Positions 10,114 to 31,358 of a stretch of DNA of 64,000 nt are shown one piece after another. The stretch is from Candidatus Poribacteria bacterium. Lineage in GTDB: Bacteria > Poribacteria > WGA-4E > WGA-3G. The stretch's first letter is position 1. Each line of letters begins with the position of its first letter. Where the stretch lies: positions 32,001 through 96,000 of the forward strand of contig CBDBFU010000032.1 in NCBI GenBank assembly GCA_965205025.1, written 5' to 3'. The notes under the pieces were generated by a model, which did not search any database, was not told the DNA's origin, and worked only from the letters and a program-made list of their open reading frames with translations. The translations under genes were made by a program, and so were the position numbers.

Positions 10114-11841
10114 CTAATTGTCCTCAGGATCCACCCTATAAATCCAGACATGATCAATACCGTTGAGAGATATTTGGTGTTCCAATTCACCATTTAGTGT
10201 GCCAGTTTGCGGCACACGTCCGATTTGCGAATCTCGGATATAGACGACTTCATAATCGGGATTATATCCACGGTTTCTATCTGCTCGATAGACAAAACCT
10301 TGAAAATAGTAATATACAAATTCAGTGGCAAGTGGCGACACTTGAACGACGAGATCTTCAGCATTCGGTTTCTCATTCAAATAGTTGGCTGCGATATCCA
10401 ACCCAGAGGCATCTCCTACAGTGATTATTTTCGTAATATCCGTGACTTTCCAACAAGGGTTGTAGTAAGTTCCATAATACGGGTGAAGACATAAAGCTGG
10501 CCATACCTGAATGAAAAATAACAAAATACAGGTAACAATGGTTAAGGAACGTTTGAAAACGAGTTCTTTGGATCCTAAGCGAGAATCAATAACACTATAT
10601 AGCCAGCGGAGAATTGTAACGAAACTTAAAGCAGCAAGTATTTCTAAAATTGGAAATGCAGGTAGTAAATAGCGACTGAATTTTTTGCTTGTAGCAGAAA
10701 GACATACTGTAAAAATCAGAACAACCACAACTAAAGCGACCACTTTACGAAATTGAACTCCAGTTTCAACTGTATGTTTACGATTTTTCCAAAAAAGAAA
10801 AATACCGACGAAAACAAGAGGCAACATAAATGGTGTGCTTTTAATTGATAGCACAAAAGGATAGAATAACCATCCAGGATCATAGACAACTTTTCCGAGA
10901 AAAAAGTGTTCTACTTCATGCGGTGTTGTGACTGCCCAATTTACTCTGTCAAAAACACGCCACGCGGTATGCCCTATACAGATACATATTACGATTAGTC
11001 CTATGATTGCAGACAAGGTGAGTAGAAAGGACGCGTGTTTCTTTTTTAAAACTCTCAACATAAAAAATACAATAATTGAAAGGCATACTCCGAACATGGC
11101 AAAAGCAACTGTCCAAAAAACGGGCCAAAATCCAAGTACTGTAAGGAGCGCGCAGCTGAAAAAACATAGTAATGCTGCTACGAATGAAAGAAAACGTCGT
11201 CTGTTTTCTTTATCCTGGTTATAGAATAAAATAAAACACAATATTATCCACACGACCAGAATAAATGAATAACTTTTGGAAAGACATGCTAACCCAAAAG
11301 TTATCCCTGAAAAGGTCAAATAGTTATACTTCTTGGGCATCTCACAGTACAACAAAAATAGCAGAACCGTTATAAGAATAAATACGGTTGCTAAAGCGTC
11401 CGTGTGCACTCGCCTCGTCTGTGCTAAGAATAAGGGTGAAAAAGTTAGAAACGCAACACTTGTTATTGCTTCCCAAAGTCCAAACAAACGATTAAGGAGA
11501 ATACCACAGACACCAATTCCAAACGATATTACGATACCAATCAACCATCTCGCAGCTGCTAAGTTAGCAAGATCAAAATGTGTTTCTAAAAAGAATGTCC
11601 GTAACCCCGAGACCCACATTGTTATTACACCAGGGTGATACGCAATAAGTGTTTCAGAGAAGTCTCCACGGGTGATAGCATCCATGAAGTCAGCACTTCG
11701 ATTGAGCCACCGTGCCTCATCGCTTGACCAATGGGCAGACAACGTCAAAAACCTTGGCAAGTTTATAACTACAAAGATACTCAATGCGAATAAAAGCACC
11801 GTGTAGCGGTGTGAAAATAACGAACATGTTTGTTGTGGCAT
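10114..11841 (-). CDS. ArnT/PMT-like GT-C membrane glycosyltransferase
   Basis: Multi-TM; early DE motif, HPG, RYLLP. Confidence 0.8.
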   Translation of the reverse strand: MPQQTCSLFSHRYTVLLFALSIFVVINLPRFLTLSAHWSSDEARWLNRSADFMDAITRGDFSETLIAYHPGVITMWVSGLRTFFLETHFDLANLAAARWLIGIVISFGIGVCGILLNRLFGLWEAITSVAFLTFSPLFLAQTRRVHTDALATVFILITVLLFLLYCEMPKKYNYLTFSGITFGLACLSKSYSFILVVWIILCFILFYNQDKENRRRFLSFVAALLCFFSCALLTVLGFWPVFWTVAFAMFGVCLSIIVFFMLRVLKKKHASFLLTLSAIIGLIVICICIGHTAWRVFDRVNWAVTTPHEVEHFFLGKVVYDPGWLFYPFVLSIKSTPFMLPLVFVGIFLFWKNRKHTVETGVQFRKVVALVVVVLIFTVCLSATSKKFSRYLLPAFPILEILAALSFVTILRWLYSVIDSRLGSKELVFKRSLTIVTCILLFFIQVWPALCLHPYYGTYYNPCWKVTDITKIITVGDASGLDIAANYLNEKPNAEDLVVQVSPLATEFVYYYFQGFVYRADRNRGYNPDYEVVYIRDSQIGRVPQTGTLNGELEHQISLNGIDHVWIYRVDPEDN

Positions 11842-11844
11842 GAA

Positions 11845-12129
11845 TTATTTGGAAGGTGTCTGGGTAGATTTTTGTTTTTTACTTTCCTGTTCTGCCCATG
11901 CTTGTTCCATTTTTTCTCGAAGTATCTTTCCACGCCTAATGCGTTCTTCTCGTGTTGGGCAGCAGCTGCAAGATTTCCTTTTCTTTTTAACAGCTGCACC
12001 TTGAGATGTAACAGAGTTTTCCTGCGGAATAGGTTGTATAGGTTTAGTGAGTCCAATTGTTGCGTAAACCATAAAACATGCAACGATTACACACAAACAA
12101 ATAATTCCTAATATTATAAAAAGTCTCAT
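11845..12129 (-). CDS. Small membrane-anchored protein with KSCSCC motif
   Basis: N-terminal TM helix, CSCC followed by a charged helix; start overlaps the upstream stop. Confidence 0.65.
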   Translation of the reverse strand: MRLFIILGIICLCVIVACFMVYATIGLTKPIQPIPQENSVTSQGAAVKKKRKSCSCCPTREERIRRGKILREKMEQAWAEQESKKQKSTQTPSK

Positions 12130-12926
12130 CTGTTATCCCCAGTGTTTTTATAGCGACCTTGTCTTACATCCTCATAAATACGATCTAAGTGTTCTTGGTT
12201 TTTGGGTGGCCACGGCACATCAGCGGGAAGTTCAAGTTCTTCACGGCTTATCGGCGGTGGTTTTTTAGGAAGAATATTACCCATATCATCAATATAAACG
12301 ACTTTCCAACCCCACGGGTGTTTACCCTTAAATGCAATGTCAAACATATGTTGCTCAGTAAGTTTAGCATTTCCACTACTTACTCCGTATCCCTTCAATC
12401 CTCTATTAATAATAACGCTTTTTTTAGGAAGTGGAAGAACGGTTCTTCCATCAGGTCCTAAAAATTCAACGGAGAATACGTTTGGATCTGCCTGCTTTGC
12501 GGTTTTGGTTTGTTGGTATTTCCAAATCTGTCTATCAATGTGAGCATCTTCAAAGGATTTCCAGTCATCATATATAGTACCGAAATACATTTTGGGAAGC
12601 CATTTCTCTGGATCAGATAAATATATACGCTCCTGATGCATTAAACCACTACGAAGCAACATCATATACTGATGGAAATCATTAGCATCTTCAAAAACAA
12701 TGCCTTTATCAAGAATCCTTTGAATCCATTTGGTTGGAGGGTATCTCTCATTACATGCCTGCAACCATTCAATAGAGACATTATCAAATGTAAATGCTTG
12801 AAGAATAGTTTCAGGAGTTTGTGGTAGCGGGCCCTCATATTTGATAACTGGTTTCTTTATTGTTTGAACACAGGATATAATCATGCATAAACTGAAAATT
12901 AACACAACTGTCAATATAACTTTCAT
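12126..12926 (-). CDS. Lipoprotein, paralog of 12923-14365
   Basis: Lipobox IISC; shared PQT, YP..W...LDKGI, IDR.IW.YQQ and GKHP..VYI..G blocks. Confidence 0.75.
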   Translation of the reverse strand: MKVILTVVLIFSLCMIISCVQTIKKPVIKYEGPLPQTPETILQAFTFDNVSIEWLQACNERYPPTKWIQRILDKGIVFEDANDFHQYMMLLRSGLMHQERIYLSDPEKWLPKMYFGTIYDDWKSFEDAHIDRQIWKYQQTKTAKQADPNVFSVEFLGPDGRTVLPLPKKSVIINRGLKGYGVSSGNAKLTEQHMFDIAFKGKHPWGWKVVYIDDMGNILPKKPPPISREELELPADVPWPPKNQEHLDRIYEDVRQGRYKNTGDNR

Positions 12927-14365
12927 TTTTCCTCCAAGAGATTAATTTTGCTATTACTTCGTCGTGCAGGTGGTTGCCGCCGCATCTGACGTTCTAATTG
13001 TTTAATCATTTCAATATCTTCTGCTTCAAGTCTACGGAGTCCTTCTTCAAGTCCATATTCATTTAATGTCCTAAAGGTTTTCTGAAGATACTCCGGACTA
13101 AACCTTTTGTTAAGAGTCTCCTCAATGTTTTCTGCGGTAGGTGGTTCAGGTCGCAACAACTTCTTAATTTCTGCTTCAAATTCAGCATCGCTTAGGGTGG
13201 AGAGTCTAAGTATTTCGGTGTCTATGTTTATTCGATCAGGTTTCTTGGTACTTTGATTAGGAATACTTTCTGTGAGATATTCTAAGTTTTCTGAAGGTAA
13301 TTTTTCTGCAAAGTCACCTTCAACAGATTGCGGTTTCCAAGTATCCGCAGGTGCACTAATCTCTTCTCGTGTTATCAAAGGAGGTTTTTCAAGGTGTGTA
13401 TCTCCATCTTCGTTGATGTAAACGATGTCATAATCTGTAGGATGTTTTCCACGAAATAAAATGTCAAATTTTTGTTCATCAGAAAGTGGAGTGCCGATAA
13501 AAGAGCCTCCCCCTTTGCCTCTTTCGACGTAAATACGTCCGGGAATAAATGGTATGAAGGTTTCTTGGTTAGGACCAATGAAAATTCCTCCAGATATTTC
13601 CGGATTCGACTCCATAGCGACTTTGAGTTGTTGGTATTCCCATATCTTCCTATCTATAAAAGCAGCTTCGTAGGTCTCCCAATCATTCGTAGGTGGAATA
13701 CCGAGATTACCCGATGCCCATTCTTCTGGTTGATGTTCACGTCGTGCTAAACTCCAGCGTGGTGCCATATAACCAGAATAGTCGCCATAATCTTCAATAG
13801 TGATACCTTTATCAAGGAGCATCTGAAGCCATTCAGCTTGAGGATACTTATCATCTATTGCAGGGTTGGCAATCATTTCTTCAAATGAAGTAAGTAGTGC
13901 TTCAACGGTTTGAGGACCCTTATGTTTTTTTGGTCCATCATCCGTTTGTTGCTTTTCAGGGGGTGGGAGTTCCGAAAAATCATAAACCCTAATAGGCGGC
14001 GGTATATCGGAATCTTCTTTTAGTCGTTTTGCCAACCTCTCAAATGTCTCTCGGGTTTGATCCCTTAACGTTTCAATCTGACTCAGTGCACCCGTAAACT
14101 CATGCGGCATTTCATTCTCAATCGTTTTTAAAAGCGCCTCGGTTTGGATATCTGTTTGTTCATCCAACCAAGATACCCACGGATCTGTATTCAGGTCCTT
14201 TTTATTTTCTCTAACTGTCGGTTCCACAGTAATTTCCCTAACCTTTGTTTGTTGCGGATTAACTGTGGGGATGTCTCTCTCAACAATCGGACGATATAGA
14301 AGAAAGGACACTATACCTAAAATAACTAAAAAAAGCAAAATATACAGAAGTTTTTTATGTTTCAT
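12923..14365 (-). CDS. Membrane-anchored hypothetical protein (partner family)
   Basis: Probable start MKHKK after GGAG; N-terminal TM; paralog of the downstream gene. Confidence 0.75.
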   Translation of the reverse strand: MKHKKLLYILLFLVILGIVSFLLYRPIVERDIPTVNPQQTKVREITVEPTVRENKKDLNTDPWVSWLDEQTDIQTEALLKTIENEMPHEFTGALSQIETLRDQTRETFERLAKRLKEDSDIPPPIRVYDFSELPPPEKQQTDDGPKKHKGPQTVEALLTSFEEMIANPAIDDKYPQAEWLQMLLDKGITIEDYGDYSGYMAPRWSLARREHQPEEWASGNLGIPPTNDWETYEAAFIDRKIWEYQQLKVAMESNPEISGGIFIGPNQETFIPFIPGRIYVERGKGGGSFIGTPLSDEQKFDILFRGKHPTDYDIVYINEDGDTHLEKPPLITREEISAPADTWKPQSVEGDFAEKLPSENLEYLTESIPNQSTKKPDRINIDTEILRLSTLSDAEFEAEIKKLLRPEPPTAENIEETLNKRFSPEYLQKTFRTLNEYGLEEGLRRLEAEDIEMIKQLERQMRRQPPARRSNSKINLLEEK

Positions 14366-14389
14366 TGTATAACTCCCGAATGAATGTGT

Positions 14390-14419
14390 CACCGGCAAAG
14401 TAGTTAATCTCTGCCGGTG
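14390..14419 (-). terminator. Stem-loop after small secreted protein gene
   Basis: CACCGGCA..TGCCGGTG inverted repeat. Confidence 0.5.
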
Positions 14420-14433
14420 AAAACATTAAATCC

Positions 14434-14919
14434 CTAAGAACTTGTAGAACACTCATCATAAATAGACTGATTTTCAAAAGTACCACTTGCTACAGCAGAG
14501 GTATCAACTGACATCCTTCCGTTTCTATCTATCTGAAGAAACCTACTTGCAGATACCTCCTGAGTATCTACTGAAATCCAAGTCCACCACAAAAAACTCT
14601 TTTCTTCTGCTGTTAGCCAAAATGGTTTCTCTCCCTCTCCATCAGGATCCCTTTTTGTGAGCCAACCCGCTTTGGCAATACAATAACCAGAACCTGTGTA
14701 TGAATCACCATCTTGCTTCACTTTACCGTCAGCATAACTGATAGAAAGTGTGGCAGAAGCTGAATTGGAGCCACAAGAGGCGTAAGCAGTCGCCACAACT
14801 CTCTCATCACTGGATAGCGCTGATTTATTATCATCATCAGCATTGGATTCTTGATGGTTATAGATAACTATACCCAAACATAATGCCACTACGAAAGTGG
14901 CAAACATTACTTTATTCAT
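14434..14919 (-). CDS. Small secreted Ser/Ala-rich protein with Cys residues
   Basis: Probable start MNKVMF after AAGGA; signal peptide ending SNA. Confidence 0.7.
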   Translation of the reverse strand: MNKVMFATFVVALCLGIVIYNHQESNADDDNKSALSSDERVVATAYASCGSNSASATLSISYADGKVKQDGDSYTGSGYCIAKAGWLTKRDPDGEGEKPFWLTAEEKSFLWWTWISVDTQEVSASRFLQIDRNGRMSVDTSAVASGTFENQSIYDECSTSS

Positions 14920-15021
14920 ATTTTTATCCTTTTTCAATGAGGGTATTAAGTAAATAATGATGCGTGTAACTATGGATAACCCTCTTAATCCTGCTGCATC
15001 ATATTTTAATATATAAATTGA

Positions 15022-15284
15022 CATTCAATACCTTCGCCAAATATGGCTGATGTTTCATAAGTTAACCTAAGATGAAGTTAACCTAAGATGCTTCTTATCC
15101 AGTAGGAATCCTTGCGATTCAGATCAATGATGTCCCATAGCCTTTTAGTCTGTGTCCACCCATAAAGTCAACTGGTGTGGAATATGGTCTATACAGGAAT
15201 AAAAATAACTTCCGAAAAACCTGAAGTTATTTAATCCTGAAATTCCAGAACTTCTCTGAGCAATCGGTCTTACTCACTATGACA
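15022..15284 (-). repeat. Conserved non-coding leader, copy 1
   Basis: Colinear with 17888-18130. Confidence 0.8.
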
Positions 15285-15777
15285 AGGTAACGGCGTAAAG
15301 TTCATTCACCCCGCTGTATCTCCACCCCCTCCGCCTATCCCTATTCACGTCCCAGAGATACACTGCCCCAGTATCATCTCCGATCGCAACGTGAATACCA
15401 TCCGGACTATAAGCAACTGCGTTAATACCTTGAGCATCAGCAAAATTCAAACGCTGAACCTCCTTTCCATCGCTCGTCCACAAATGGACCACTACGGTGG
15501 CACCGCCGGCGGCGATGAACTTCCCATCAGGGCTGAAGGCAACTCCTTTAATTGCACCACCGATTGAGTGATGGTAGATCCTTTCACCGTCGCTAACTTC
15601 CCAGAGTTCCACATCACCCCCAGCATCTCCTGTGATGATATACTCTCCATCAGGACTAAAATCAACAGAAAGGGCGTCATGAGAAAGATTGTATAACTTG
15701 GTTTGAGCAATGATATTTTCAGCCATGCCAAACCAAACAAAGATAACCATTGTAATCCAAAAAAAGTTCTTTCGCAT
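15277..15777 (-). pseudogene. Truncated secreted WD40-repeat protein
   Basis: Signal peptide and three WD40 repeats (FSPDG, YSPDG); ends abruptly at the start of the conserved leader. Confidence 0.75.
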
Positions 15778-15851
15778 TGTATATCTCCTTTGTAAAAAAT
15801 GAAATCACCTTACAATTGCCACACGGCAAAGGTTAAACCATTTCTAATAAA

Positions 15852-16199
15852 TTACATCACGTTTTCGATCTTGGTTGTATAATCGTACTTTGTTATACTC
15901 TCAATAGCGATTTTCGTGTAACTTCGTATGATCTCAGTGAGTTTATCCTGCATCTCTTGTAATGAAGTCAGAACAATTTGAAATAACTTTGCTTTGATGT
16001 CTTGCCATAGTCTTTCAATAGGGTTCAACTCGGGACTATAAGGCGGTAGAAAGAGGAATACTATATTCTCAGGAACTTGTAGTGATTTCGCTTGATGAAA
16101 ACGCCCATTATCAAGGACAAGGATATTCAGAGACGCCGGATACACCTTAGCAAACTCATCAAGAAATATTTGGAAACAGGTACTATTCAGATAAGGCAT
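15852..16199 (-). pseudogene. IS630-family transposase C-terminal remnant
   Basis: LDNGRFH and FLPPYSPELNPIERLW motifs; possible end AACCATTTCTA at ~15836. Confidence 0.88.
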
Positions 16200-16488
16200 T
16201 TCAACGAAAAAACTTGTCTTAACTATGCTGTTTTTTTGGTCTGAATTACCGTTGGCACTTCAGTTTGTTGTTTTTGTCGCCTTATGTTTCTACCTTTCAA
16301 GGAAGATTGTAGATAGAACAATACCGCTTTGAAAACTGCAATGGATTCAGTTGTTTACTAATTTAAAATAGGTTTGGTAATACATCTAAAAGTATGTATT
16401 AAAATCACTTTATATCCAAGCCAAATTACAATACAGACTATATTTTCAGAATATACCTATTACTAATAGTATTTCTTAAGATCTCAAT

Positions 16489-16977
16489 CTAATGTGCTGG
16501 ACCGTCAGTTTGACTACCACCTGGCGGATATTTAACTTTCGATTTATGATTATGTGAAATATATTCATCATTGAAAGATGTGACAATACCAGCAAGAGAT
16601 CTTGACTCATATTCAGGTTCCTGACTACCAAACCCAGGTACATCAGTCCAAGTATTATAGCGATAGGCATTTGCAGTAAATGAACCCTCTATACCTGGTT
16701 CTCCTGGAGCGACTTCTTTTCGATCCTCTTCCAAATGTGGCACATTTGCTACAACATAGTACCAACTTCGCGTTACACCACCATCAATTCTTGATGGTGC
16801 TGCAACATCAGCCGATGCCCTTGCCATAAAAAGAATAACACCAAGTGAACTTGATGTACCATTTATTGAAGCAGAACAAGTAGCAGTATTCCTGGGGCCA
16901 GAATGTGTCAACCCAATATTCCAAACAAATAATAACGTAACAAAAAACAATAAAAAAGCCAAAAGATAATGTTTCAT
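16489..16977 (-). CDS. Small secreted protein
   Basis: Signal peptide; RBS AGGAG adjoins the upstream stop. Confidence 0.7.
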   Translation of the reverse strand: MKHYLLAFLLFFVTLLFVWNIGLTHSGPRNTATCSASINGTSSSLGVILFMARASADVAAPSRIDGGVTRSWYYVVANVPHLEEDRKEVAPGEPGIEGSFTANAYRYNTWTDVPGFGSQEPEYESRSLAGIVTSFNDEYISHNHKSKVKYPPGGSQTDGPAH

Positions 16978-16988
16978 TATATCTCCTT

Positions 16989-17774
16989 TTATTTTAATCC
17001 TAAAAATTCATACGGATCAATACCTTCTGAGTCGTAATCCAATATACGAATACTTTCTGGGGTTTCTCCTTCGGCTATTTTAACATATTCAGACGGCGTA
17101 ATGTCGCCTCCACCGAATGAATCCGAGATTACTGAGAGTCTTGAAGGTGATCCGTTAGACATATCATCAATTACATCCAATTTACTATATCTTACATAAA
17201 CAGTTCTTGGATACAATAAGTATACTTTCTGGTTGATATCAAATTTGAGACCGGTAATATCCCGTTCTCCATTATTCCATAATTTTACACGGACACGGGA
17301 TAAGATCTCAAATGTCCGTTGTCTACTACTTGGCATTTTTGCTACCCCAGGATTTTCCCATGCTACATCGTATGGGTAATCTTCAGGGATTTTTGGATAC
17401 GGTCCAAATCCAAAAGGAGAAGTCCGTAAATCACTCTGAAGTTTATTTTCATCTAATGGTAGACTCAGAGATCCATCATTTTGGGTTTCAACATTAGATT
17501 GCGTTTTTCTCTCTTGTTTCTCCCGAACTTCCTTAAGAAAACTCGTCCATTCATAACTCAATGAATCAGAAGTTGAATTAAGATATGTATCTTTCAGCGT
17601 TAAATCAGCATCTATCGGCTCTTGCTTTTCCTCCTCTTTAATTTTACTAAGAAACTTTTCATGTTCAAACTCACTTTGCTTGATTTCCTCCTTCACTTGA
17701 CGAGACCAAACAAAACTACCAACAGTAATAATGATACAAGTGAAGATCACACCAGTAATGAGAATACGTTGCAT
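16989..17774 (-). CDS. Membrane-anchored hypothetical protein (SPFGFGPYP..P.DYP / GIDPY.FL family)
   Basis: N-terminal TM; paralog at 24187-25006. Confidence 0.75.
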   Translation of the reverse strand: MQRILITGVIFTCIIITVGSFVWSRQVKEEIKQSEFEHEKFLSKIKEEEKQEPIDADLTLKDTYLNSTSDSLSYEWTSFLKEVREKQERKTQSNVETQNDGSLSLPLDENKLQSDLRTSPFGFGPYPKIPEDYPYDVAWENPGVAKMPSSRQRTFEILSRVRVKLWNNGERDITGLKFDINQKVYLLYPRTVYVRYSKLDVIDDMSNGSPSRLSVISDSFGGGDITPSEYVKIAEGETPESIRILDYDSEGIDPYEFLGLK

Positions 17775-17829
17775 TTGTTATTCTCCTATATTGGATTATT
17801 AAATAGACAGTATTAAGCAAATAATGGAG

Positions 17830-17869
17830 GCAAGACTCAATAATCAGTATAAGCAATTATTGAGTCTGC
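17830..17869. terminator. Long stem-loop between leader copy 2 and the downstream gene
   Basis: AGACTCAATAAT..ATTATTGAGTCT inverted repeat. Confidence 0.5.
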
Positions 17870-17887
17870 ACTATTTCAATTTATCAA

Positions 17888-18130
17888 ATTCAATACCTAA
17901 ACTAATAATGACAGATTTTTCATAAGCTAATCTAAGTTGTTACTTGTCCAGTAGGAATCCCTCAGTTCTGATTGATGTTGCCCATAAAGAGTTAGTTTGT
18001 GACCCCATTAAGTCAACTGGCTTAGAATTTGGTCTTAACAAGAATAAAATCACTTCTTGAAAAACCTGAAATTACTTTTAATCTTGAAATCTCGGAACTT
18101 CTCTGAGCAATCCAATTACTCACTATGACA
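17888..18130 (-). repeat. Conserved non-coding leader, copy 2
   Basis: Colinear with 15022-15284. Confidence 0.8.
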
Positions 18131-18376
18131 CCCATCAACTAAAACTTAGATAATTGGCGCAGCTATTGAATTGTATACCTTCCTTTTAGATATGATTTAA
18201 ACATATCTATCTGATTGGAGACTTTATTGACGCCACTGAGTACATTATGTATAACCATATCTTTGCCCTATAGCGTCAGTGGTCTCCATATATGTGTGTC
18301 AAGGTGTTGCCAATCATAGAGATCTAACATCATAAATACTTAGCAACGCTTGACATAAATACACCAACAGAAATAT

Positions 18377-18429
18377 GACCTGCCTCTATAATTAAATGAC
18401 CCATGTTTTATACTTCAAAAGGTGCAAAA
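18377..18429 (-). promoter_or_regulatory. Putative ECF promoter TGCACC-N20-GTC
   Basis: Motif copy with exact 20-nt spacer. Confidence 0.55.
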
Positions 18430-18799
18430 TCGTAATAAAAGAATATTTAATTCTGAATTATACTGTTTTCAAAAATTAATGCGCTGGTAAAAACAACAAT
18501 ATGATAATATTATCTATCTGATGGAGTATACTGCAGAAAACAAAACATAGAAGTTTCACTCCTGAATTTTAAGACAAACATCATATTGAAGCATCTGACG
18601 GTTAAAGTTCACAAATGGAATTATGCTGACAACATTGCCTTAACAAGAACAACTTCATTGAATTTTGTTATTATTTTCTATTAACCATTTAGCCTTAAAA
18701 TGTTAACTAGCACAACGCGTAAGTATAGAAATATTATTGGTACATATATTGGTGCGGCAAAGATCCTCACGTGTTAGATTATTGTTAAAGTAAGACTTA

Positions 18800-19233
18800 T
18801 TAATAGGTTGTTACCTTAATGTCAATTCCAAGTTCATTCGCGATTTTTTCAAGTACTTCTTTCATAGTAGTCGGACGTTCAAGACGTAGTATGAAATATT
18901 CTCCCAATTGTGATTGATTAAGAGATTTATCTTTTTCCTTCATAACTATATGTACCCCTTCATGTCCTTCAAAATATTTGTCAATAAACAGTAATTCCCG
19001 TTTATATATTTCTTCTAATCCTAAACACTCTATTGCTTGAAAATATGTATCTATAGGTTTTTCGTCTGTATACCAATTATCTCCTATTTTCACGTTCAAT
19101 TTACCTCTTGGATCCGGTTCCCAATAATGCTTTCCTTAATTGAACCATCGGAGAATTGGACTCTAATGAAATCCTCTCCAATTTCGTAATTAGTGATTCC
19201 AGAATCGCCTCCAACATTTGCATATACTTCCAT
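18800..19233 (-). pseudogene. Frameshifted or chimeric gene: KTSC-like N-terminus plus C-terminal domain of unknown function
   Basis: GGAGG then MEVYANVGGDSGITNYEIGEDFIRVQFSDG (45-aa ORF); continues in another frame into ORF 18800-19099. Confidence 0.5.
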
Positions 19234-19576
19234 TTTTCCTCCTGTTGATTTTGCATTAATTTGTAAGGAAATTATATTTTTATTTTACAATAAATTTCTG
19301 TTGACCCACTGCGGTAGCTCCTGAATACAAGGAATTGACCAACTGTAGATCTTGTAAAAGTTACGTTTTATCACCATCATCGTTGGCGTGTAATATATCT
19401 TCGTTTCCAGAACAATTTAATTCCAGTAATACCAGAATGCCAAGATTTTAGTATTTCAGGTCTAAGTTTTATTTGTAGATACGAAATGATACTTAAGACG
19501 AGAAGGTTCCTCTCAAGTTCTCTATCACAAATTATCTATCTTCGTAATTTGCACTTTTTACAAACTTAAAAAATAT

Positions 19577-19628
19577 GACCCCCTCTATAATTAAATGACC
19601 CATGTTTTATACTTCAAAAGGTGCAAAA
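19577..19628 (-). promoter_or_regulatory. Putative ECF promoter TGCACC-N20-GTC
   Basis: Motif copy. Confidence 0.55.
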
Positions 19629-20063
19629 TCGTAAATAAGGTGTATTTTATTTTCATTTATACTGTTTTCGATAAATTTAAACCTATAAGAAACAACAGTA
19701 TGATAATATATTTTACCTGACAGAACATGCTGCAGAAAACCAAAAGTAGAAGTTTTACACCTGAATTTTAGGCACAAGTGCTGTGTAAAGTGAGAGAGGT
19801 ACGTTTTACCACCATCACCGTTGACGTGTAGTATCTTCGTTTCCTGAACCATCTAATTCCAGTAATCCCAGAATTCCAAGATTAGAGGATTTCAAGTCTA
19901 AGTTTTATGTAATTTCTTAGTCGTGATGATTCTTTTTCAGTGATTACCCATCCTCTTCATTTGTAGGTACGAAATGATACTTAAGACGATAACGTTTGCT
20001 CTCAAGTTCTCTATCACAAATTATCTATCTTCGTAATTTGCACTTTTTACAAACTTAAAATAT

Positions 20064-20115
20064 GACACCCTCTATAATTAAATGACCCATGTTTTATACT
20101 TCAAAAGGTGCAAAA
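20064..20115 (-). promoter_or_regulatory. Putative ECF promoter TGCACC-N20-GTC
   Basis: Motif copy, divergent from the sigma gene promoter. Confidence 0.55.
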
Positions 20116-20194
20116 TCGTAAAAAAGTATATTTTATAGTATAATATTCCTTGTATTTAGGTAAGTAACATACCTCTTTTATACCTCTTTTATCT

Positions 20195-20245
20195 TTTTGC
20201 ACCTTTTGCCTCTATTTAAATGTGTCTTTATTAATAGAGGGAGTC
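20195..20245 (+). promoter_or_regulatory. Putative autoregulatory promoter of the ECF sigma gene
   Basis: TTTTGCACC-N20-GTCTTT..ATAGAGG, 80 bp upstream of the sigma ATG. Confidence 0.6.
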
Positions 20246-20324
20246 TAATCATTAGGTGTAAATAAATCTAAACCTACCGTTTGTGATTTAATAATATAAT
20301 ATAAGGTTAATAGGGAGATGTATC

Positions 20325-23186
20325 ATGGCAGAAAACAGTGTTGAATTAATTGCAAGAATTTTGGATGGCGACAAACAAGCATTTAATACTTTAATAAGCA
20401 AGTACCAAAAAAGAACTCATGCACTTGCTTGGAAGATGACAGGTGATTACGAGACCGCTGAAGAAATCACACAAGACGTATTTGTCAAAGTATATAACAA
20501 ATTGCATACACTTAGAAATCCAAAGCAATTTGATGGATGGCTCTATGTAATTACAAGGAGATTATGCATTAATTGGATGGAACGGAAGCAATCCAATATG
20601 AGATCGTTAGAGCAGATTTCAACGGAGGAATTAGATGAGATTTCTTATCGGCAATATGAATTGCAATTAATAGAAACAAATACTATCGAAGATAAACAGG
20701 ATATTGTCAAGGAGCTCTTGTCAAAATTGCCAGAAAGTGAACGAACGGTAATAACACTCTACTATATCGGCGATATGACGCCAACAGAGATAAGCAAAAA
20801 ATTAGGTGTATCCGTGAACACAATTAAAGCCAGATTACTACGTGGACAAAAACGTTTACAAGCGAAAGGGAAATCTATAATTAATGAAAATCTTGAAAGT
20901 GTACAACTTTCTACCGATCTAACTGAGAGTATCATGAAACAGATTCAAGATCTCAAACCTGAGCCAGTTGTTGCCAAACCGTTTCTCCCATGGACTGTTC
21001 TCGGTGCTTCATTCGTTTTAGTACTTCTACTGTTAGGTGCGATGAACCATTATATCACTCACTTTCAGCAACCTTATAATTACGAGGCATTATCAGAACC
21101 TACAATTGAAATCGTTGAATCCCCTATAACTGTTGATATTGTTACAAATACAGTTGAGCGTAAACGTTTAGTTGGAAATATAAGTAGTAATAATAGCAAT
21201 GGAAGAAGTCCACAGATATCTGAAACTGTTATAGATTCCAATAATCAGAATAACCCACTCAAATTATCTACTGCTGATTGGACATACATCGGAAAACCAA
21301 GTGGAACCACTATTTTCAATATTTTCTCTACTTCAGAAGATGATCTCTATGCAAGTGCAGGTACAGGTATTTATAAATTAGTTAAGAGTACAAATACATG
21401 GTCAAATGTCACCGCAGATATTCCTATTCATGGACACTTATCCCCAATAGCACATTATAAAGGAGCGATTTATGCTATCAACGGTTCCAATATACATTCT
21501 TCAACTGATAAAGGTAAAACTTGGGAGGTAATGTGTTCAATACCACAAGGAATTGAAATTGGATTAATAGTGCAAAATAATACCTCAGCAGGTAATTCAG
21601 ACGATAATATTGTAATGTATCTCGCTTTAGAAAAAAAAGGAGTATTTAAATCAATTGATTTAGGTAAACAATGGACACCTATGAATAAAGGCTTGGAGGA
21701 TAAGAAAATTACGGTCTTAGATACAATTGATAACGCACTAATTATTGGTACGAATCAAGGCATTTATCGGTTGAATTCAGGTATATGGGAAAAATTGCCA
21801 GTTGATCCGTATAGAAAAATCGAATCTTTGGCAGTATATAAACATAATCTTTATATTCTAACAGGTCCAGAGTCTCAAGAGGTTTCTAAGACTAACTCAC
21901 AACTTTTAAGATCCGAAGCGAAACATGATAAATCGCGTCGTATTTTCCACTCAGAAAATCTGGGTGACTCTTGGAGAGAGATCACACCTAAAAACAACCT
22001 TTTATCAATTAAACTTTCAATTGGTAAATATACAAAGATTTCAGCAAACGGAAAATCACTGTATGTATATGGAACTTATACAATGCACTCAATGGATCAA
22101 GGGAAATCATGGGATGCGCTTCAACCCTATATGACTTCAATTAGACCAAGATATCCTTCTGTATTCTCACTGACCAAAGATACTTATTACAATATCAATA
22201 TGTCCGGTCTTCACCGTTCAACTGATAATGGTACCACATGGCAACCGTTCATGGATGGCATTTTGGGAACAAGTGTCTTCGATATGATAGCATTTAATAA
22301 TAGATTATATGTGAATACTGGTAATATCATTCTTGTACAGACAACCGATGAAAGAGGGTGGGAATCAATACCTGTTTATTCTTGGAAATCTACAGGGAAA
22401 GCAGTTCCAATTACATACCAACACCTCAACCATCTTACTGAATCAAAGTTTGCAATAGTCAATAATGTACTTTATGGAATTAGTCATCGAGGAAGTAAAC
22501 TGTATATTTACAAATTATCGGCATACGATACTCATTTTTCATTGATAAAAATGATACCTTTTAGTCAACTTACAACGAATTCTGATAGACATTCTACCTT
22601 TGGCACTTTTACTGTAAGTGATAATATATTCTATATAGAATTCAATTACAGACTATTCAAATGGGAAGATGGAAGTTCAAAAATAGAAAATACAGGCATA
22701 ATTGATACGACTAAATACTCTAATGTCAAATTTACAGGAGGATTAAAGGTCGCAGCTTTATCAGATACTGTTTATGTTGGCAAACGGGATGGAAGGCTTC
22801 TTCGATCAGATGATCGTGGGAACAATTGGCAAGACATGACATCAAATCTTCCATTCACTGTCTCAAATTTCAAAGATATTACCTTTGTTGGAAATACCGT
22901 TTATGTTTCTACAGACAAAGGTGTTTTGGCTTCACAAAACGGAGACCACTGGTGGAGATTAACTAATACTGAAGGGAAACATATTATTATAGATAAATTC
23001 ACTATTCATAAGTCAAACATATATGGGGCAAGTGATACTGGTGCTTATTACTTAGATCAACAAGGTAAATGGGAACAAATCTATCCAAACATACAAGATA
23101 AGGTTATTTCTTTAACTTGCACTAACAATAAACTCTATATCGTTACTGAACAGCAAGGCATACGCTATGCATCCATAAAGAAATAA
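20325..23186 (+). CDS. ECF sigma-70 factor fused to a TM helix and extracytoplasmic BNR/Asp-box beta-propeller
   Basis: Region 2 (AEEITQDVFVK..FDGWLY), region 4 (LPESERTV..LGVSVNTIKARL), TM at ~aa 222-240, SxDxGxxW repeats. Confidence 0.9.
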   Translation: MAENSVELIARILDGDKQAFNTLISKYQKRTHALAWKMTGDYETAEEITQDVFVKVYNKLHTLRNPKQFDGWLYVITRRLCINWMERKQSNMRSLEQISTEELDEISYRQYELQLIETNTIEDKQDIVKELLSKLPESERTVITLYYIGDMTPTEISKKLGVSVNTIKARLLRGQKRLQAKGKSIINENLESVQLSTDLTESIMKQIQDLKPEPVVAKPFLPWTVLGASFVLVLLLLGAMNHYITHFQQPYNYEALSEPTIEIVESPITVDIVTNTVERKRLVGNISSNNSNGRSPQISETVIDSNNQNNPLKLSTADWTYIGKPSGTTIFNIFSTSEDDLYASAGTGIYKLVKSTNTWSNVTADIPIHGHLSPIAHYKGAIYAINGSNIHSSTDKGKTWEVMCSIPQGIEIGLIVQNNTSAGNSDDNIVMYLALEKKGVFKSIDLGKQWTPMNKGLEDKKITVLDTIDNALIIGTNQGIYRLNSGIWEKLPVDPYRKIESLAVYKHNLYILTGPESQEVSKTNSQLLRSEAKHDKSRRIFHSENLGDSWREITPKNNLLSIKLSIGKYTKISANGKSLYVYGTYTMHSMDQGKSWDALQPYMTSIRPRYPSVFSLTKDTYYNINMSGLHRSTDNGTTWQPFMDGILGTSVFDMIAFNNRLYVNTGNIILVQTTDERGWESIPVYSWKSTGKAVPITYQHLNHLTESKFAIVNNVLYGISHRGSKLYIYKLSAYDTHFSLIKMIPFSQLTTNSDRHSTFGTFTVSDNIFYIEFNYRLFKWEDGSSKIENTGIIDTTKYSNVKFTGGLKVAALSDTVYVGKRDGRLLRSDDRGNNWQDMTSNLPFTVSNFKDITFVGNTVYVSTDKGVLASQNGDHWWRLTNTEGKHIIIDKFTIHKSNIYGASDTGAYYLDQQGKWEQIYPNIQDKVISLTCTNNKLYIVTEQQGIRYASIKK

Positions 23187-23227
23187 GTTCTTGTTCAACA
23201 TTGAATCTTCACATATAGGTTATAAAT

Positions 23228-23515
23228 ATGAACAAAAATTATAAATATGAAGGTGTACATCTCAAGCCTCAAATTGCCGAAAAGCTTATTTTAAAACTAT
23301 TCTCAGGAAAAACTGTTACCAGAAGCGAAATTGACACGGGGGTAATTCAATTTCATGAATCGGCAGGTGGTCTTCCATCAACTGCTAAGACAAACCCAAT
23401 TCGTACTGCTCTGAGATATCTAAAGGAAAATGGTCTCGCAGAAAACATTTCCAAAGGACCTGGTAGCACTTGGCGGATATCAAATTCAGTAATTGTATCT
23501 TCTATGAATTTGTAG
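23228..23515 (+). CDS. Small hypothetical protein, possibly winged-helix
   Basis: 95-aa ORF; ALRYLKENGLAE..G.W wHTH-like end. Confidence 0.55.
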   Translation: MNKNYKYEGVHLKPQIAEKLILKLFSGKTVTRSEIDTGVIQFHESAGGLPSTAKTNPIRTALRYLKENGLAENISKGPGSTWRISNSVIVSSMNL

Positions 23516-23559
23516 ACCATATTTTGAATTGGCAATCTATTAGTCCGTTTTAGTAAAAT

Positions 23560-23592
23560 GATAGACAGATAGCGTAAAGGCTACCTGTCTAT
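23560..23592. terminator. Stem-loop between convergent genes
   Basis: ATAGACAGATAGC..GCTACCTGTCTAT inverted repeat. Confidence 0.55.
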
Positions 23593-23609
23593 ACTTAATA
23601 TTCGGTTAT

Positions 23610-24170
23610 TTAATCTACACTCACGGATACAGAGTTTTCATGATTGAGTTGAGTATCAGGATTTAGTATAGGTTGGGAGTTAGAACCAGATTCTGCAGGA
23701 TTGATCAATTCTACAGTAAGACGACCATTTGCCCCACTGTATGCTGTGGTTACACTAATGTTCTGAGGTAGATTACCTATTTGTGGTTGCCTAAACACAT
23801 TCGTACTATATTCCCACCATGGACCATTAAATTTCTTTTCGATTGAAATAGAGTTTACTCCTACTATATTTATCGATGCCGAAAGACCATACTCTCCACT
23901 ATAATTAGGACTATTAGCATAGGAATGGAAATTTGCACTGCAACTAAACACATCCTCACCAGCGTCTATTCTATATAAACCTTTCTTGATGTATCAACTT
24001 CTAAGGGACCGTCCCCATCCGCACAACGTTCCCAGTTGCCATCCCATATTCGGGAAATCATCAAAAGTTCCAGATTTCCTGAACTCAGAATCAGTTGCCT
24101 GAACTATACCATTAATTATCACTCCGCTGATTATTACTACAATTAGTAAACTATAAACAAATCTTCTCAT
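23610..24170 (-). pseudogene. Small secreted protein, frameshifted
   Basis: MRRFVYSLLIVVIISGVIINGIVQA signal peptide at 24170; C-terminal part in ORF 23610-23951. Confidence 0.55.
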
Positions 24171-24186
24171 AATAGAAATTCCTTCC

Positions 24187-25006
24187 TTATTTTAAATCTA
24201 AAAATTGATATGGGTCAATACCTCCGTCAGTAGAATCAATTATCTTAATTCCTGGAGGGCACATCACTTTCTTTAAGTACACCTTTTGTTTCAATGATAT
24301 CTCTGAGAGATTTCCCGGCTTCTCTATCACCGGATACACCAGTTGCATATCTTTCCACGGTGCCGTCGGATCTCACTCGATCTTTCCATTCAACATAAAC
24401 AGTACCGGAATATTCACATATATCTTCCCGTTTATCATCGCCCCACCGAGTGAATGTATACCTTGCTTCCACAATTTGATTTGGACACGCAATAGTAATT
24501 CATGTGCTACAGTAAGAGATTTTGGGTTATCCCAAATATTTCTGTGCCGGATAATCAACTGGAATCTCAGGAAAAGGACCAAAACCGTTGAATGAAACCG
24601 GTCTCTTTGTAGGTTCAGGGAATCGTTTCTCTGTTGATAGACCTATATCATCATGTATCACCTCTTTCACGAACAAGTCCGCATTTTCAGTTCGGTTCTC
24701 TGAAGATTCTGTTAGATTTTCCTCAGATTTAGACATCTCAGGCGTTGACACCTTTGGCTGCCTATTTATCTGATCATTTTTCGACAAAACCAATTGTGAC
24801 CTAACATCAGTATCAGCAAGCTGCTGACTGAATAATGCTATTGAATGTTCATGAAAGAGGTAACACACACCAGAAAAAAGAACAAGAAAACATAACCCAC
24901 CAAGTATCCATTTGTTTACATAAGTTCTTGAATCATATTTACCTCGTTTAAATAATTGTCTCGTTATAGTAGTAAAATATCTAATGCAGTTTAAAATTAA
25001 AAACAT
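24187..25006 (-). pseudogene. Paralog of 16989-17774, frameshifted
   Basis: SFNGFGPFPEIPVDYP, ELLLRVQIKLWKQG and terminal GIDPYQFLDLK* lie in different frames. Confidence 0.75.
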
Positions 25007-25008
25007 CA

Positions 25009-25060
25009 GACACCTTCTATAATTAAAAGACATATAATTTAGAGGTCATAAGGTGCAAAA
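25009..25060 (-). promoter_or_regulatory. Putative ECF promoter TGCACC-N20-GTC
   Basis: Boxes conserved, spacer sequence diverged; directly upstream of the partner gene. Confidence 0.6.
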
Positions 25061-25839
25061 AATGAATATGTAGAATTAAATGAATACGCAGATTTGTTAT
25101 ATTCTCACAATTCTGTGTTATAAAATTGAGCCATCATATTCTAAGATTAGATACAAGGACCTCCTAAGAAATACCCCATAGGCATCAACAATTAAGTCTT
25201 ATGCCAACTTCGGTTGGACACTACATTAGGGATTTCTAATAGTACTAAACTTTGGACAATTATATGTGATACACATTTCGCACTGCTGAGGCTGCGTTTT
25301 TGGGGCATCTATAGACGTCAATTTAGTGAGATTAACGAGTTGTGCTAAATAACTTTTAGCAACCAATAATTTCACATATATAATAGTTGATATGAATATC
25401 CTACATTAGTTAAGACTTTTCTTTAGTCCCGTAGGGACGGAATGTCTATAGAAAACCTATGAAAAACCTAAGTTGAGTCCCGTAGGGACGGAATGTCTAT
25501 AGTAAAAAACCAAAATCCGTAAAAACAACAAATACATTTAGTTAACTGGCACAAGTCGTGAGATTAGTATATTTTTAGTTTGTTTTGGGGTGTCTGAACC
25601 ACGGATTACGCGAAACAGAGTGTTAGGAGAGGATAAGGAGTAACACCAATTCTAATAAATAATATGTCATCACATAAATTTTATGGAATTGAATATTGTT
25701 GGGAACTATCTTCTGTAGGAGCGACCTCTCGGTCGTAACATGGAGATTGCCCCTACAGAATTTCCACCCTCAAGGATGATCCTGAATTTGCTAAATACTC
25801 TCTCAGGACATCCTTAATGGTCAGACAGATAAGACAAGT

Positions 25840-26886
25840 CTATACAGACAATTCAGACAACCTTACAGTCTTCCCACCGGCTTCAGCAGATTGATCAGCA
25901 GCAAACACAACACGATGCGTTTCAAAGGCTGTATCGAAATCGGTCAATGGCATCGGTTCATTTCTACCAATACTATCTATAAACGCTTGAAACTGCGGTT
26001 CATACGGATGATCACTCACATCACCAGAATCTATCAGTGATGTTTCAAGGTTACTCCATTTACTCTTATCCATACCTTTCAGTTTAGCAGAATAGATCTT
26101 ATTATCAAGCAAACTCCCTTCACTTCCAACAAGATGAATATGAAAATAATACGGTTGTAGACAATCTACACACGAAGTCACCTTACCAATCTTCTGTCCA
26201 CCCTCAAACTTAAGTAAACTCACACTGGTGGTCTTATATTCATACGGTTGAAATACTTCTCCGGCAGATTGTGTATGATAACTGGTAACCTCTTCCACAT
26301 CTCCATCCATAAAAAACAGAAGCGCATCAAGGGCATGACACCCTGCGGTTAACAAAGTACTGCCACCAAAATCCTTCTTGATATTCCATTCATACTGACC
26401 ATACCAAGGTCCAATCCCATGGTAGTAATCCACTTCAGCGTAGTGTAGTTCTCCCAACAATCCGTTATCAATAACTGAACGAATCATCGTAAAATGAGCA
26501 CTATATCGGCACTCAAAGCATACACACACATGCACACCATTGCTCTTAACAGCATCTCTTATCGCTTTTGCATCGTCGTATGTCAGACAGATAGGTTTTT
26601 CGATGATGAGATGTTTTCCTGCTTCTGCAGCAGCAATTGCTTGTTCCGCATGAAACGGATGTGGTGTACAGATATCAATAATGTGTACATCAGGATCAGC
26701 AAGCATCTTATCATAAGCAGTATACGCTTTTAATGGTGTACCGTAAGTCTCCTCTAATACTGATTCATCATGTTCACGACGCGAACAGATCGCAGTAACA
26801 TCTGATCCTGCTATTGCTTTAAAAGCTTCAATATGTGCTCCCGCAACCCAACCCAGACCAACAATACCTACATTTAAGTTTGCCAT
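25840..26886 (-). CDS. Gfo/Idh/MocA oxidoreductase
   Basis: GLGWVA Rossmann motif, EKP, GCHALD. Confidence 0.92.
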
Positions 26887-27600: not shown

Positions 27601-27756
27601 AATATTTACACACACCTTCTCATATTCAGGTTGACGTACATACAATAAAATGATATACTTAAACGGATTTAAAATATTAACTCATAAGAATATTGCAAAC
27701 TACTTGAGGATAGGACTAAATATAGAAAAATGAGACTTTTCTCTGGAGGAAATACC

Positions 27757-29969: not shown

Positions 29970-31358
29970 ATGAATCCAATTAGGTTCCGTTACTCAATTT
30001 GGGTAGCAACCTTTTTATTCGTTATAGTATCAATCTCAATTCAAGCACAAGAATACAGAGAATTGACACTTGAAGATAGTCTGCAAATTGCACAAAAGGA
30101 TAATTTATCTATTCAGGCTGCAGAACAAAAACTTATCGCTGCAAAGACGCAGGTAGATTTAGCACGTTCAGCATTATTACCAAGACTTTCAGCAAATGGG
30201 AATTACACCTATTTTAAAGACATTCAGAAATCCGTTATTCAGGCTGAAGGAGGATTTGGATTTCCTACGCCAGCACAAGAAATGAATCAGATGTCCACGC
30301 CAGATCCTGATAATGAGGCTGAGTTAATTGAATTGGAATTTGGGGCACATCATAATGTACAAGGAACAGTAAATTTAACCCAACCAATTTTTGCATGGGG
30401 ACGGATCTATAATAACTATAAAGCTGCAACAATCGGATATACTGCGGCAGAAGAAGAATTATCATCTGCTTATGAGAATCTTCGCTTAACTGTGTATGAG
30501 TCCTTTTACGGTGTTCTGATTACCCAAGAATTTGTAAAAGTCGCTGAACAAAGTGTCGAATTGGTTGAACTGCAACTCGCTCTCGCTGAGAGATCTTTTG
30601 CAGTCGGAGCAACAACAAATTTTGATGTTCTACGCGCTAAAGTTCAACTCGCAAATACAAAATCACAGTTGATTCAGGCACGTAATAGAGTCAAGAATGC
30701 TAAAGATTCATATAAAACTATATTAAACATTCCTCTTACACAAGATATTTCTGTAAAGGGGTCATTCCAAATACAACAGATAGAGAAAAAACTCGATGAG
30801 TTAATCTCAATAGCTATGACCCATCGTCCAGAAGTAAAACAATCTAACCTAAATGAACAGATAGGACAAAAACAACTCAGTGTTGCTAAAACCCAAAACC
30901 TGCCTGATCTCGCTTTTTTCTCTAATTATCAAATATCCCATAGTGAAAGACTCACAGAGATGAATAGAATTTGGAGTTTAGGTTTACAAATTAATGTTCC
31001 TATATTCGACGGTTTCGCATCACGGGCAGCTGTAAAACAAACCGAATCTACACTTAAGCAGATTGAATTATCTTCAAAACAGATAAAATCTTCTGTAGAA
31101 TTTGAGGTAAGATCCTCATATCTTGCATTACTTGAAGCTAAAACCCTTATAGACGTACAAAAGGAAACTGTTGCTCAAGCAGATGCAAGTGTACGTTTAG
31201 CAAATCTACAATTTGAATCAGGTATAATAACCACTGTCGAATTAACCGATGCGCAACTTGCACTATTACAGGCAAAAGTCAATCGATTACAAGCACAACA
31301 CAATTATGTGATTGGTCTCGCAAGATTAGAAAAAGCAATTGGACAAAGGATACAGTGA
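29970..31358 (+). CDS. tolC: TolC-family outer membrane efflux protein
   Basis: Two OEP repeats (LLPRLS, PIFAWG, NLPDL, PIFDGF). Confidence 0.9.
   Translation: MNPIRFRYSIWVATFLFVIVSISIQAQEYRELTLEDSLQIAQKDNLSIQAAEQKLIAAKTQVDLARSALLPRLSANGNYTYFKDIQKSVIQAEGGFGFPTPAQEMNQMSTPDPDNEAELIELEFGAHHNVQGTVNLTQPIFAWGRIYNNYKAATIGYTAAEEELSSAYENLRLTVYESFYGVLITQEFVKVAEQSVELVELQLALAERSFAVGATTNFDVLRAKVQLANTKSQLIQARNRVKNAKDSYKTILNIPLTQDISVKGSFQIQQIEKKLDELISIAMTHRPEVKQSNLNEQIGQKQLSVAKTQNLPDLAFFSNYQISHSERLTEMNRIWSLGLQINVPIFDGFASRAAVKQTESTLKQIELSSKQIKSSVEFEVRSSYLALLEAKTLIDVQKETVAQADASVRLANLQFESGIITTVELTDAQLALLQAKVNRLQAQHNYVIGLARLEKAIGQRIQ

Follow-up and report, generated by a model that had tools for sequence, protein, structure and literature searches.

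Two related Poribacteria-wide gene cassettes pair a membrane-anchored partner with a variable secreted protein

In the Lif-lipase pair, an inner-membrane anchor, a spacer and a periplasmic domain make up a helper that is encoded beside its one secreted client. In chaperone-usher pili, a periplasmic helper is encoded together with variable immunoglobulin (Ig)-like secreted subunits, and in polymorphic toxin-immunity systems of the Rhs/CDI/MafB type a variable secreted domain occurs along with tandem arrays, conserved-flank exchange and a surplus of orphan partners. Here we analyze a stretch of 64,000 nucleotides (nt) of a Candidatus Poribacteria bacterium genome, G000 (contig CBDBFU010000032.1 of assembly GCA_965205025.1, positions 32,001 to 96,000), hereafter the window, to whose full length positions refer if no contig is named. 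Three minus-strand cassettes in this window each combine the gene of a small secreted-type protein, the cargo, with that of a membrane-anchored partner. Based on profile searches, structure predictions and comparisons of related loci, we find that these cassettes are two related Poribacteria-wide systems, type A and type B, and propose that the pair probably handles variable surface-recognition proteins.

The type-A pair resembles Lif and its lipase in that the partner joins an anchor and a spacer to a predicted extracytoplasmic domain and adjoins a secreted client. It differs in that the partners have no Lif/Lipase_chap Pfam match, no lipase client is found among the Pfam-scanned cargos, the modeled partner is alpha/beta and its client small and all-beta, and the pair is multi-copy and hypervariable. 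As in chaperone-usher pili, a helper is encoded beside variable Ig-like secreted proteins, whereas the 16 window proteins scanned include no PapD-type Pfam match and no usher, and here the helper carries a membrane anchor. A literature search, extending to few subscription papers and to no supplements, returned no description of these cassettes. The first-pass annotation of this locus, made from the sequence alone, had recognized no named family, in line with Pfam (no match at E ≤ 0.1 for the window partners or cargos) and NCBIfam (one weak, sub-threshold match only); judged by sequence, no component appears to belong to a described family. The two leading mechanisms weighed below follow known principles, but the proteins that would put them into effect are new.

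Poribacteria are dominant uncultured sponge symbionts, and the cassettes are among their expanded, fast-evolving gene pairs. PMC3909097 reports that Poribacteria often encode Ig-like and FN3 proteins bearing signal peptides, with the secretion route open, and that the surface biology of the phylum is known mainly from domain counts.

The two type-A cassettes of the window have the partner first. In cassette 2, the partner (261 residues, 16989..17774) comprises an N-terminal membrane anchor, a low-complexity spacer of about 95 residues and a C-terminal domain of about 150 residues without a match to a known fold, and the cargo (162 residues, 16489..16977) carries a signal peptide. Cassette 3 consists of a paralogous partner (24187..25033) and its cargo (23610..24170). 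The motifs FGP(Y/F)P.IP.DYP, RV..KLW..G and GIDPY.FL.LK* are present in both partners, whose stop codons precede the next ATG by 11 nt (16989) and 16 nt (24187) with a purine-rich ribosome-binding site (RBS) in the gap, confirming the earlier description of clear paralogs that adjoin the RBS of the small gene. Cassette 1 is of type B and has the reverse gene order. A cargo of 161 residues with a signal peptide (14434..14919) lies upstream of its own partner (12923..14365; 480 residues if translation starts at the ATG at 14365, the most likely start), which consists of a membrane anchor and a core with a C-terminal module related to that of type A. Next follows a short type-B paralog (12126..12926, 266 residues) with a lipobox-like start (IISC, by eye); the two are paralogs, as had been noted, with 37% identity over 211 residues (E 5e-40).

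All motifs named in the first-pass annotation for small genes and partners are where it had placed them, i.e. for the cargos ATAYASCG in 14434-14919, TATCSASING in 16489-16977 and FSCSANF in 23610-23993. Its view of three alike cassettes stands as far as the association of Ser/Ala/Gly-rich secreted proteins with partners is concerned (Ser, Ala and Gly make up 28-34% of the mature cargos compared to 20% genome-wide), but not in the sense of a single arrangement, as there are two cargo families and cassette 1 is reversed. Similarly, the window cargos contain one to three Cys each, but 26 of 102 family cargos have none, so that Cys is no family trait.

As assembled, cassette 3 is interrupted by frameshifts that split the partner into three pieces and the cargo into two, hence 23610-24170, previously read as one gene, is not a single open reading frame (ORF). 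Over 22363-25361, a contig from sequencing run X2 shows 0 substitutions and 7 gaps relative to the assembly, a contig from X5 likewise 7 gaps, and two X3 contigs 2 and 5 gaps, all as counts of gaps irrespective of their positions. X1 and X2 belong to one study, possibly the source of the assembly, while X3 and X5 are from two others. In addition, an intact 185-residue homolog of the cargo, 82% identical over 125 residues, adjoins an intact partner at locus L315. Because of these gaps and the intact homologous pair, the frameshifts are probably assembly errors, about 7 indels over this region, and the cargo is probably one gene after all. Other frameshifts across G000 may likewise be artefacts. 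In cassette 1, X3 and X5 provide no cover over 13920-14403, almost none over 14404-14887 and no bridging contig, and were not used as evidence there.

Type-A partners are widespread in the phylum. A profile search detects 17 ORF segments at 14 loci in G000, some genomes holding at least 17 matches, and partners are found in 116 of 151 phylum genomes (115 of 135 in three families, 0 of 15 in six others). When 185,579 species genomes were scanned for the sequence pattern, 185 places were confirmed, and the titles of 75 type-A loci listed name Poribacteria in 71 cases and 'uncultured bacterium' in four. The partners form 898 clusters at 50% identity. They share a layout of anchor, spacer and a domain running from SPFGFGPYP to GIDPY.FL.L, which begins about 117 residues from the start and has the invariant residues P, P, E and L. 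Small lipoprotein-like proteins contain the domain too, and in P0048, P0061, P0083 and relatives it is part of a fusion with a TPR/YfiO-like lipoprotein (about 380 residues). No match was found in plasmid sequences, and the sole viral-contig match (L334) was rejected as a chance GIDPY word inside an unrelated ORF of 1136 residues.

The predicted alpha/beta structure of the domain (pLDDT 89.6, pTM 0.81) has no match among PDB folds (best E 0.87; best Z 3.3, helical fragments only) or in BFVD (best E 0.15). PDB sequence profiles return anchor and coil matches only, the best with E 0.0016 over profile positions 11-77, and the best ESM Atlas scores of 0.85 and 0.80 are leads only, without a family. 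The domain is therefore a candidate new fold as judged from the model, although empty fold searches are no proof, and the absence of the two-Ig chaperone fold from the listed matches is no evidence against that fold either.

The association of partner and cargo was evaluated for 220 distinct type-A partners with at least 150 nt of downstream sequence. An RBS and an ATG lie within 120 nt downstream in 185 of these, and the next gene is signal-peptide-like in 153, at a median gap of 13 nt, compared to 275 of 3164 G000 ORFs treated by the same rule, the call being made with our own hydropathy heuristic. This gene encodes at least 90 residues in 122 cases, while in seven the next gene is another partner. 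For the reverse test, 64 loci new to the analysis were drawn from 150 listed matches of the cargo alignment A3, which has matches in 73 of 151 genomes; a few of the proteins are identical or almost identical to training members. The partner is located directly upstream of 55 of 70 cargo hits (51 intact, 4 broken) and downstream of seven, two hits are at contig edges, and six were scored as having none. In two of these six, a partner-like ORF lies slightly outside the 400-nt limit; a third comes second in a cargo tandem, and the other three are genuine orphans, i.e. 3 of 68 evaluable cargo hits are without a partner nearby. Seen from the partner side, 177 are intact: a long cargo accompanies 102 of them, a short signal-peptide ORF 32, a tiny ORF 10 and a further partner 8, while 25 stand without any of these.

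Type-A cassettes also occur in tandem arrays. At L208 (G000 C9:146117-148632), a tandem duplication comprises a partner with a 62-residue cargo stub, then a near-identical partner with a full cargo of 259 residues.

The type-B hidden Markov model (HMM) matches ten G000 ORFs, none in common with the type-A HMM, and type-B partners are present in 88 of 101 genomes. When the A and B partner profiles are compared over the C-terminal module, HHalign returns 78.8% (E 1.7e-5, 65 columns), or 88% with the option -M first, as opposed to at most 1.5% for reversed-profile controls. The distant module that the first-pass annotation had proposed for both partner types is thereby recovered, and at the level of sequence the two types share a homologous C-terminal module with opposite gene order. 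Among the 29 best type-B loci outside G000, a small secreted-type gene lies directly upstream in 17 by our own reading; two of the 17 were not flagged by the heuristic, as the chosen ATG is internal, and beyond them there are one fragment locus and one edge locus. Together with the type-A counts, this bears out the earlier proposal of conserved partners next to divergent secreted cargo. An HMM was built from 20 genes that precede type-B partners outside G000; it places 14434 at rank 1 of 21,655 G000 ORFs (E 0.017), while the type-A cargo HMM ranks it only 81st. One common cargo family was rejected, the type-A and type-B cargo profiles reaching at most 0.8%, and direct HHalign comparisons of A3 to 16489 and to 14434 were negative.

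STT3-family genes follow type-B partners at L222, L234 and on G000 C3 (Pfam), and STT3-like genes at L235, L238, L240 and L241 (sequence likeness). At G000 C20:100098-106814, an extracytoplasmic function (ECF) sigma factor gene, anchored proteins and a Gly/Cys-tailed protein stand ahead of an STT3-like gene, and a similar STT3-like locus at C20:110031-112745 holds a paralog of window gene 11845. Weaker type-B matches in G000 mostly have other neighbors, e.g. permease clusters. At C2:108787-123595, ABC-2-type permease-like genes alternate with signal-peptide proteins that bear the N-terminal half of the type-B core.

The type-A cargos belong to a single hypervariable family. A set of 122 falls into 34 phmmer clusters, the largest with 50 members. 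With an HMM of 108 cargos, taken from other genomes only and freed of six entries that on inspection by eye were non-cargo or duplicates, six cargos and one cargo-like ORF upstream of a partner occupy the first seven ranks among 21,655 G000 ORFs. The cassette-3 cargo matches with E 8.7e-4, its close homologs being in the training set, and 16489 is at rank 7 with E 0.19. As HHalign of 16489 to A3 gives only 0.8%, its assignment as a divergent member of the family is weak and mostly positional. The heads are acidic (median net charge -6), with a single near-invariant residue, a Gly. A conserved Ig-like stalk motif is present in 14 of 102 long cargos (by sequence pattern), and two of these carry FN3 domains (Pfam). 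Longer cargo fusions were searched for and none was found, which is weak evidence. At L052:4707-5948, a cargo has a duplicated Cys-rich C-terminal repeat behind an Ig-like stalk.

The head of the canonical cargo of G000 contig C29, which stands in for the window cargos, was modeled as an all-beta domain of 8 strands (pLDDT 89). The nearest folds are Ig-like sandwiches of biofilm and adhesion proteins, namely CsgC (Z 6.0), CsgH (5.8-7.6), SdrE (5.8) and RbmA (5.5-5.9), MspA being listed near them; CsgC and CsgH align with a root-mean-square deviation (rmsd) of 3.5-4.2. This likeness to CsgC/CsgH, Vibrio RbmA and MSCRAMM Ig domains (Z 5.5-7.6) is however generically Ig-like, at 2-10% identity, and unlike in curli no curlin-repeat or CsgG/E/F genes are present among the 16 window proteins scanned.

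Partner and cargo are inherited together and evolve at different rates. In a comparison of 101 cassettes (5050 pairs), whenever two cargos share 50% identity or more, the identity of their partners is at least 52%. On sequence comparison this indicates inheritance as a unit and not co-adaptation, for which the correlation is no evidence because kinship alone would give it. The ratio of nonsynonymous to synonymous substitution rates (dN/dS) is higher in the cargo than in the partner in 39 of 39 close pairs, which are not independent (medians 0.49 and 0.19); we do not claim positive selection, since some values above 1 come from truncated or badly aligned cargos. Two cassettes at L109 form a mosaic: along the stalk and most of the partner gene their DNA is 95-100% identical, near the signal peptide this falls to 87% and in the head to 44-63%, so that partners 96-98% alike accompany heads that are 28% identical. 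This pattern, in a single example, points to head exchange or homogenization of the flanks, and it suggests that a partner may read the fold rather than the variable surface of its cargo. In several other cassette pairs, stalks are 80-87% alike and heads and partners unrelated.

Decay is asymmetric as well. The cargo is broken next to an intact partner in 42 of 144 cases, whereas in 4 of 55 it is the partner that is broken next to a cargo (nominal P 7e-4), with the reservations that kin are not independent, that short cargos may be genuine and that indel errors blur both counts. The asymmetry suggests that a cargo without its partner is costly, and fits a cargo that is harmful when left alone.

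The reading we tentatively prefer, at somewhat below even odds, is that the partner, tethered to the membrane, acts as chaperone or guard of polymorphic recognition proteins. One transcript would yield a Sec-exported small beta-sandwich protein and a membrane-tethered partner, probably at matched levels. The exported protein would present a variable head, sometimes on an Ig/FN3 stalk, and the C-terminal domain of the partner, held on its long spacer outside the inner membrane, would bind the newly exported head via features of the shared fold and prevent misfolding, aggregation or harm to the envelope until release or display. The heads would serve as polymorphic recognition or adhesion domains, their diversity arising as cassettes duplicate, residues change rapidly and conserved flanks recombine with one another. 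The decay asymmetry, the L109 case and the stalks together with the acidity of the heads favor a chaperone or guard over bacteriocin-immunity, ligand-receptor and glycosylation-targeting explanations. Partner and head are small, confidently folded and expressible in E. coli, which makes the adhesion, antagonism and chaperone hypotheses directly testable. A more far-reaching version, which we regard as rather unlikely, is a diversity-generating recognition system, in which phylum-specific Ig-like heads would be reshuffled via conserved flanks and moved as cassettes, and a new-fold tethered escort would license their export or display for strain-strain or symbiont-sponge recognition.

Several observations weigh against a chaperone or guard of surface proteins. 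No fold match of the head reaches Z 8, and values such as those obtained are common among beta-sandwiches. The stalk motif is limited to the 14 of 102 long cargos, a TW(G/A) tail motif is found at the ends of 0 of 102, and usher, secretin and curli genes were not found by Pfam among the 16 window proteins scanned, so that these searches point to no route to the surface. Moreover, 67 of the 177 intact partners are without an intact long cargo and tandem lipoprotein-type partners follow some cargos, both of which fit immunity better than a chaperone.

The strongest contender is a polymorphic antibacterial with its immunity protein, which we consider less likely: the head would be a Sec-secreted, envelope-targeting bacteriocin akin to lactococcin 972 that acts between Poribacteria strains of sponges, and the partner would neutralize it. 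As in toxin-immunity systems, there are a variable secreted domain, arrays, exchange via conserved flanks and common orphan partners next to rare orphan cargos. At L282, L292, L294 and L297, the usual order is reversed, with two or three genes of the type-A domain, most of them coding for short lipoprotein-like forms, behind the cargo, which would suit immunity genes. Lactococcin 972 (PDB 2lgn) and formosin D (9hkj) are small unmodified beta-sandwiches; the whole lactococcin 972 chain (66/66 residues, rmsd 2.7, Z 4.6, rank 32) and most of formosin D (74 of 85, Z 5.4) align to the head model. The beta-sandwich Lcn972 binds lipid II, as stated in PMC9964109. However, these Z values are in the common range, there is no sequence match to lactococcin 972, and the head has two strands more, is acidic and may carry an Ig/FN3 stalk. 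Pfam scans of 64 cargos at E ≤ 0.1 returned 0 Lcn972 and 0 toxin families, and the variable head is N-terminal and has no catalytic residues, only its one near-invariant Gly. To our knowledge, the type-A partner is unrelated to anything from lactococcin 972-family loci. A cognate immunity gene is expected to travel with the toxin tip, whereas here all heads are served by a single partner family, whose genes are mostly upstream (55 as opposed to 7 of 70 hits) and were not swapped along with the 28%-identical heads at L109, where the partners remain 96% identical in a single example.

The first-pass annotation had described the locus as an ECF-sigma island, but such an island is not supported as the unit. 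The gene at 20325..23186 (plus strand) encodes an ECF sigma factor that is joined in one protein with a transmembrane helix and a BNR-type propeller, and has many paralogs (82 phmmer matches in G000, along with 74 ECF-domain matches), without being a fixed part of the cassettes: ECF domains are present in 6 of 56 type-A loci of 8 kb compared to 8.5% of random G000 windows (P 0.47), i.e. there is no enrichment. The link is local and consists of a promoter motif. Three copies of a 67-nt repeat, D1, with the ECF-type motif TGCACC-N15-21-GTC face cassette 2 (18363..20115, minus strand), a fourth faces cassette 3 (24994-25060), and the motif is also listed at 20195. A related pattern, TG(C/A)A(A/C)C-N16-20-GTC, precedes 14 of 74 ECF genes compared to 15 of 1499 operon-first controls and is a candidate autoregulatory consensus of an expanded Poribacteria ECF-fusion family. 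Among relatives, the ECF-type motif lies before only 6 of 164 type-A partners, set against the same 15 of 1499 controls (P 0.013, the genomes being different). ECF control of the cassettes is thus plausible in this window, but not in general.

These motif counts, along with the co-inheritance of partner and cargo, would also suit a signal-receptor pair for kin or host recognition, where the head is a ligand and the anchored partner a receptor that feeds envelope signaling, e.g. via an ECF sigma factor. We consider this improbable, as ECF genes are not enriched near type-A loci and the partner has almost no cytoplasmic part. The sole ECF fused to a type-B module (G000 C2:117395) has no transmembrane helix, seems to be a chance chimera and was set aside as an argument for sensing.

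Slightly less probable still is that the partners are modifying or targeting factors which pass the cargo to a GT-C glycosyltransferase, the cassettes encoding variable glycoproteins, for while STT3-type genes follow type-B partners and a PMT_2 gene lies behind the window type-B cassette, no GT-C link is seen for type A among its 14 own-genome loci, 37 of 102 type-A cargos are without an N-X-S/T sequon, and the invariant partner residues suggest no known catalytic set.

The surroundings of the cassettes are shaped by repeats. Two copies of R1, a repeat of about 290 nt resembling a miniature inverted-repeat transposable element, lie on the minus strand, one directly upstream of the type-B cassette (14997..15320) and one upstream of the type-A cassette 2 (17854..18172); their outer ends are inverted repeats (15023-15044 and 18150-18171). 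Between them are passengers spanning 15277..16259, a truncated WD40 gene (15277-15777) and a DDE_3 transposase fragment (15852-16259), both on the minus strand. R1, with its terminal inverted repeats, has 10 copies in G000; six of them immediately precede a type-A or type-B cassette, and a seventh an STT3-like one. Since only 3 of 333 loci, two G000 loci excepted, carry parts of it, R1 is lineage-specific. The 5' end of R1 shows weak similarity to the end of a transposase-like gene, probably of IS4 type, at G000 C14:122902-123032. In X3 and X5, a contig of about 1 kb joins 15210 to 18332 and skips cassette 2, which suggests gain or loss of this cassette; the contig is divergent and may represent another R1 site. 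At 19359-20161, a tandem duplication of about 0.45 kb (repeats D3, D5, D14 and D17) occupies a non-coding or decayed stretch. Rfam returned nothing credible over 11000-26000.

Behind the type-B cassette and in the same direction, the minus strand encodes an anchored protein of 94 residues with a CSCCP motif (11845..12129), whose sole genomic paralog lies ahead of a gene that resembles STT3 in sequence, and a PMT_2-family (GT-C) glycosyltransferase (10114..11841), with GT4 and GT2 genes next. Two small orphan ORFs are found at 18800-19099 (minus strand, 99 residues, no family) and 23228-23515 (plus strand, 95 residues, faint winged helix-turn-helix match); an ORF resembling the latter precedes an ECF gene at L207, by eye. 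A secreted YCF48/BNR propeller protein (27730-29637, Pfam) and a TolC-like outer-membrane protein (29970-31358, by eye) are consistent with a two-membrane envelope. Finally, a short repeat at 25420-25510 (34 nt, twice) stands out in each of the four runs by a very high contig depth in sum and is probably a REP-like (repetitive extragenic palindromic) element abundant in sponge metagenomes.

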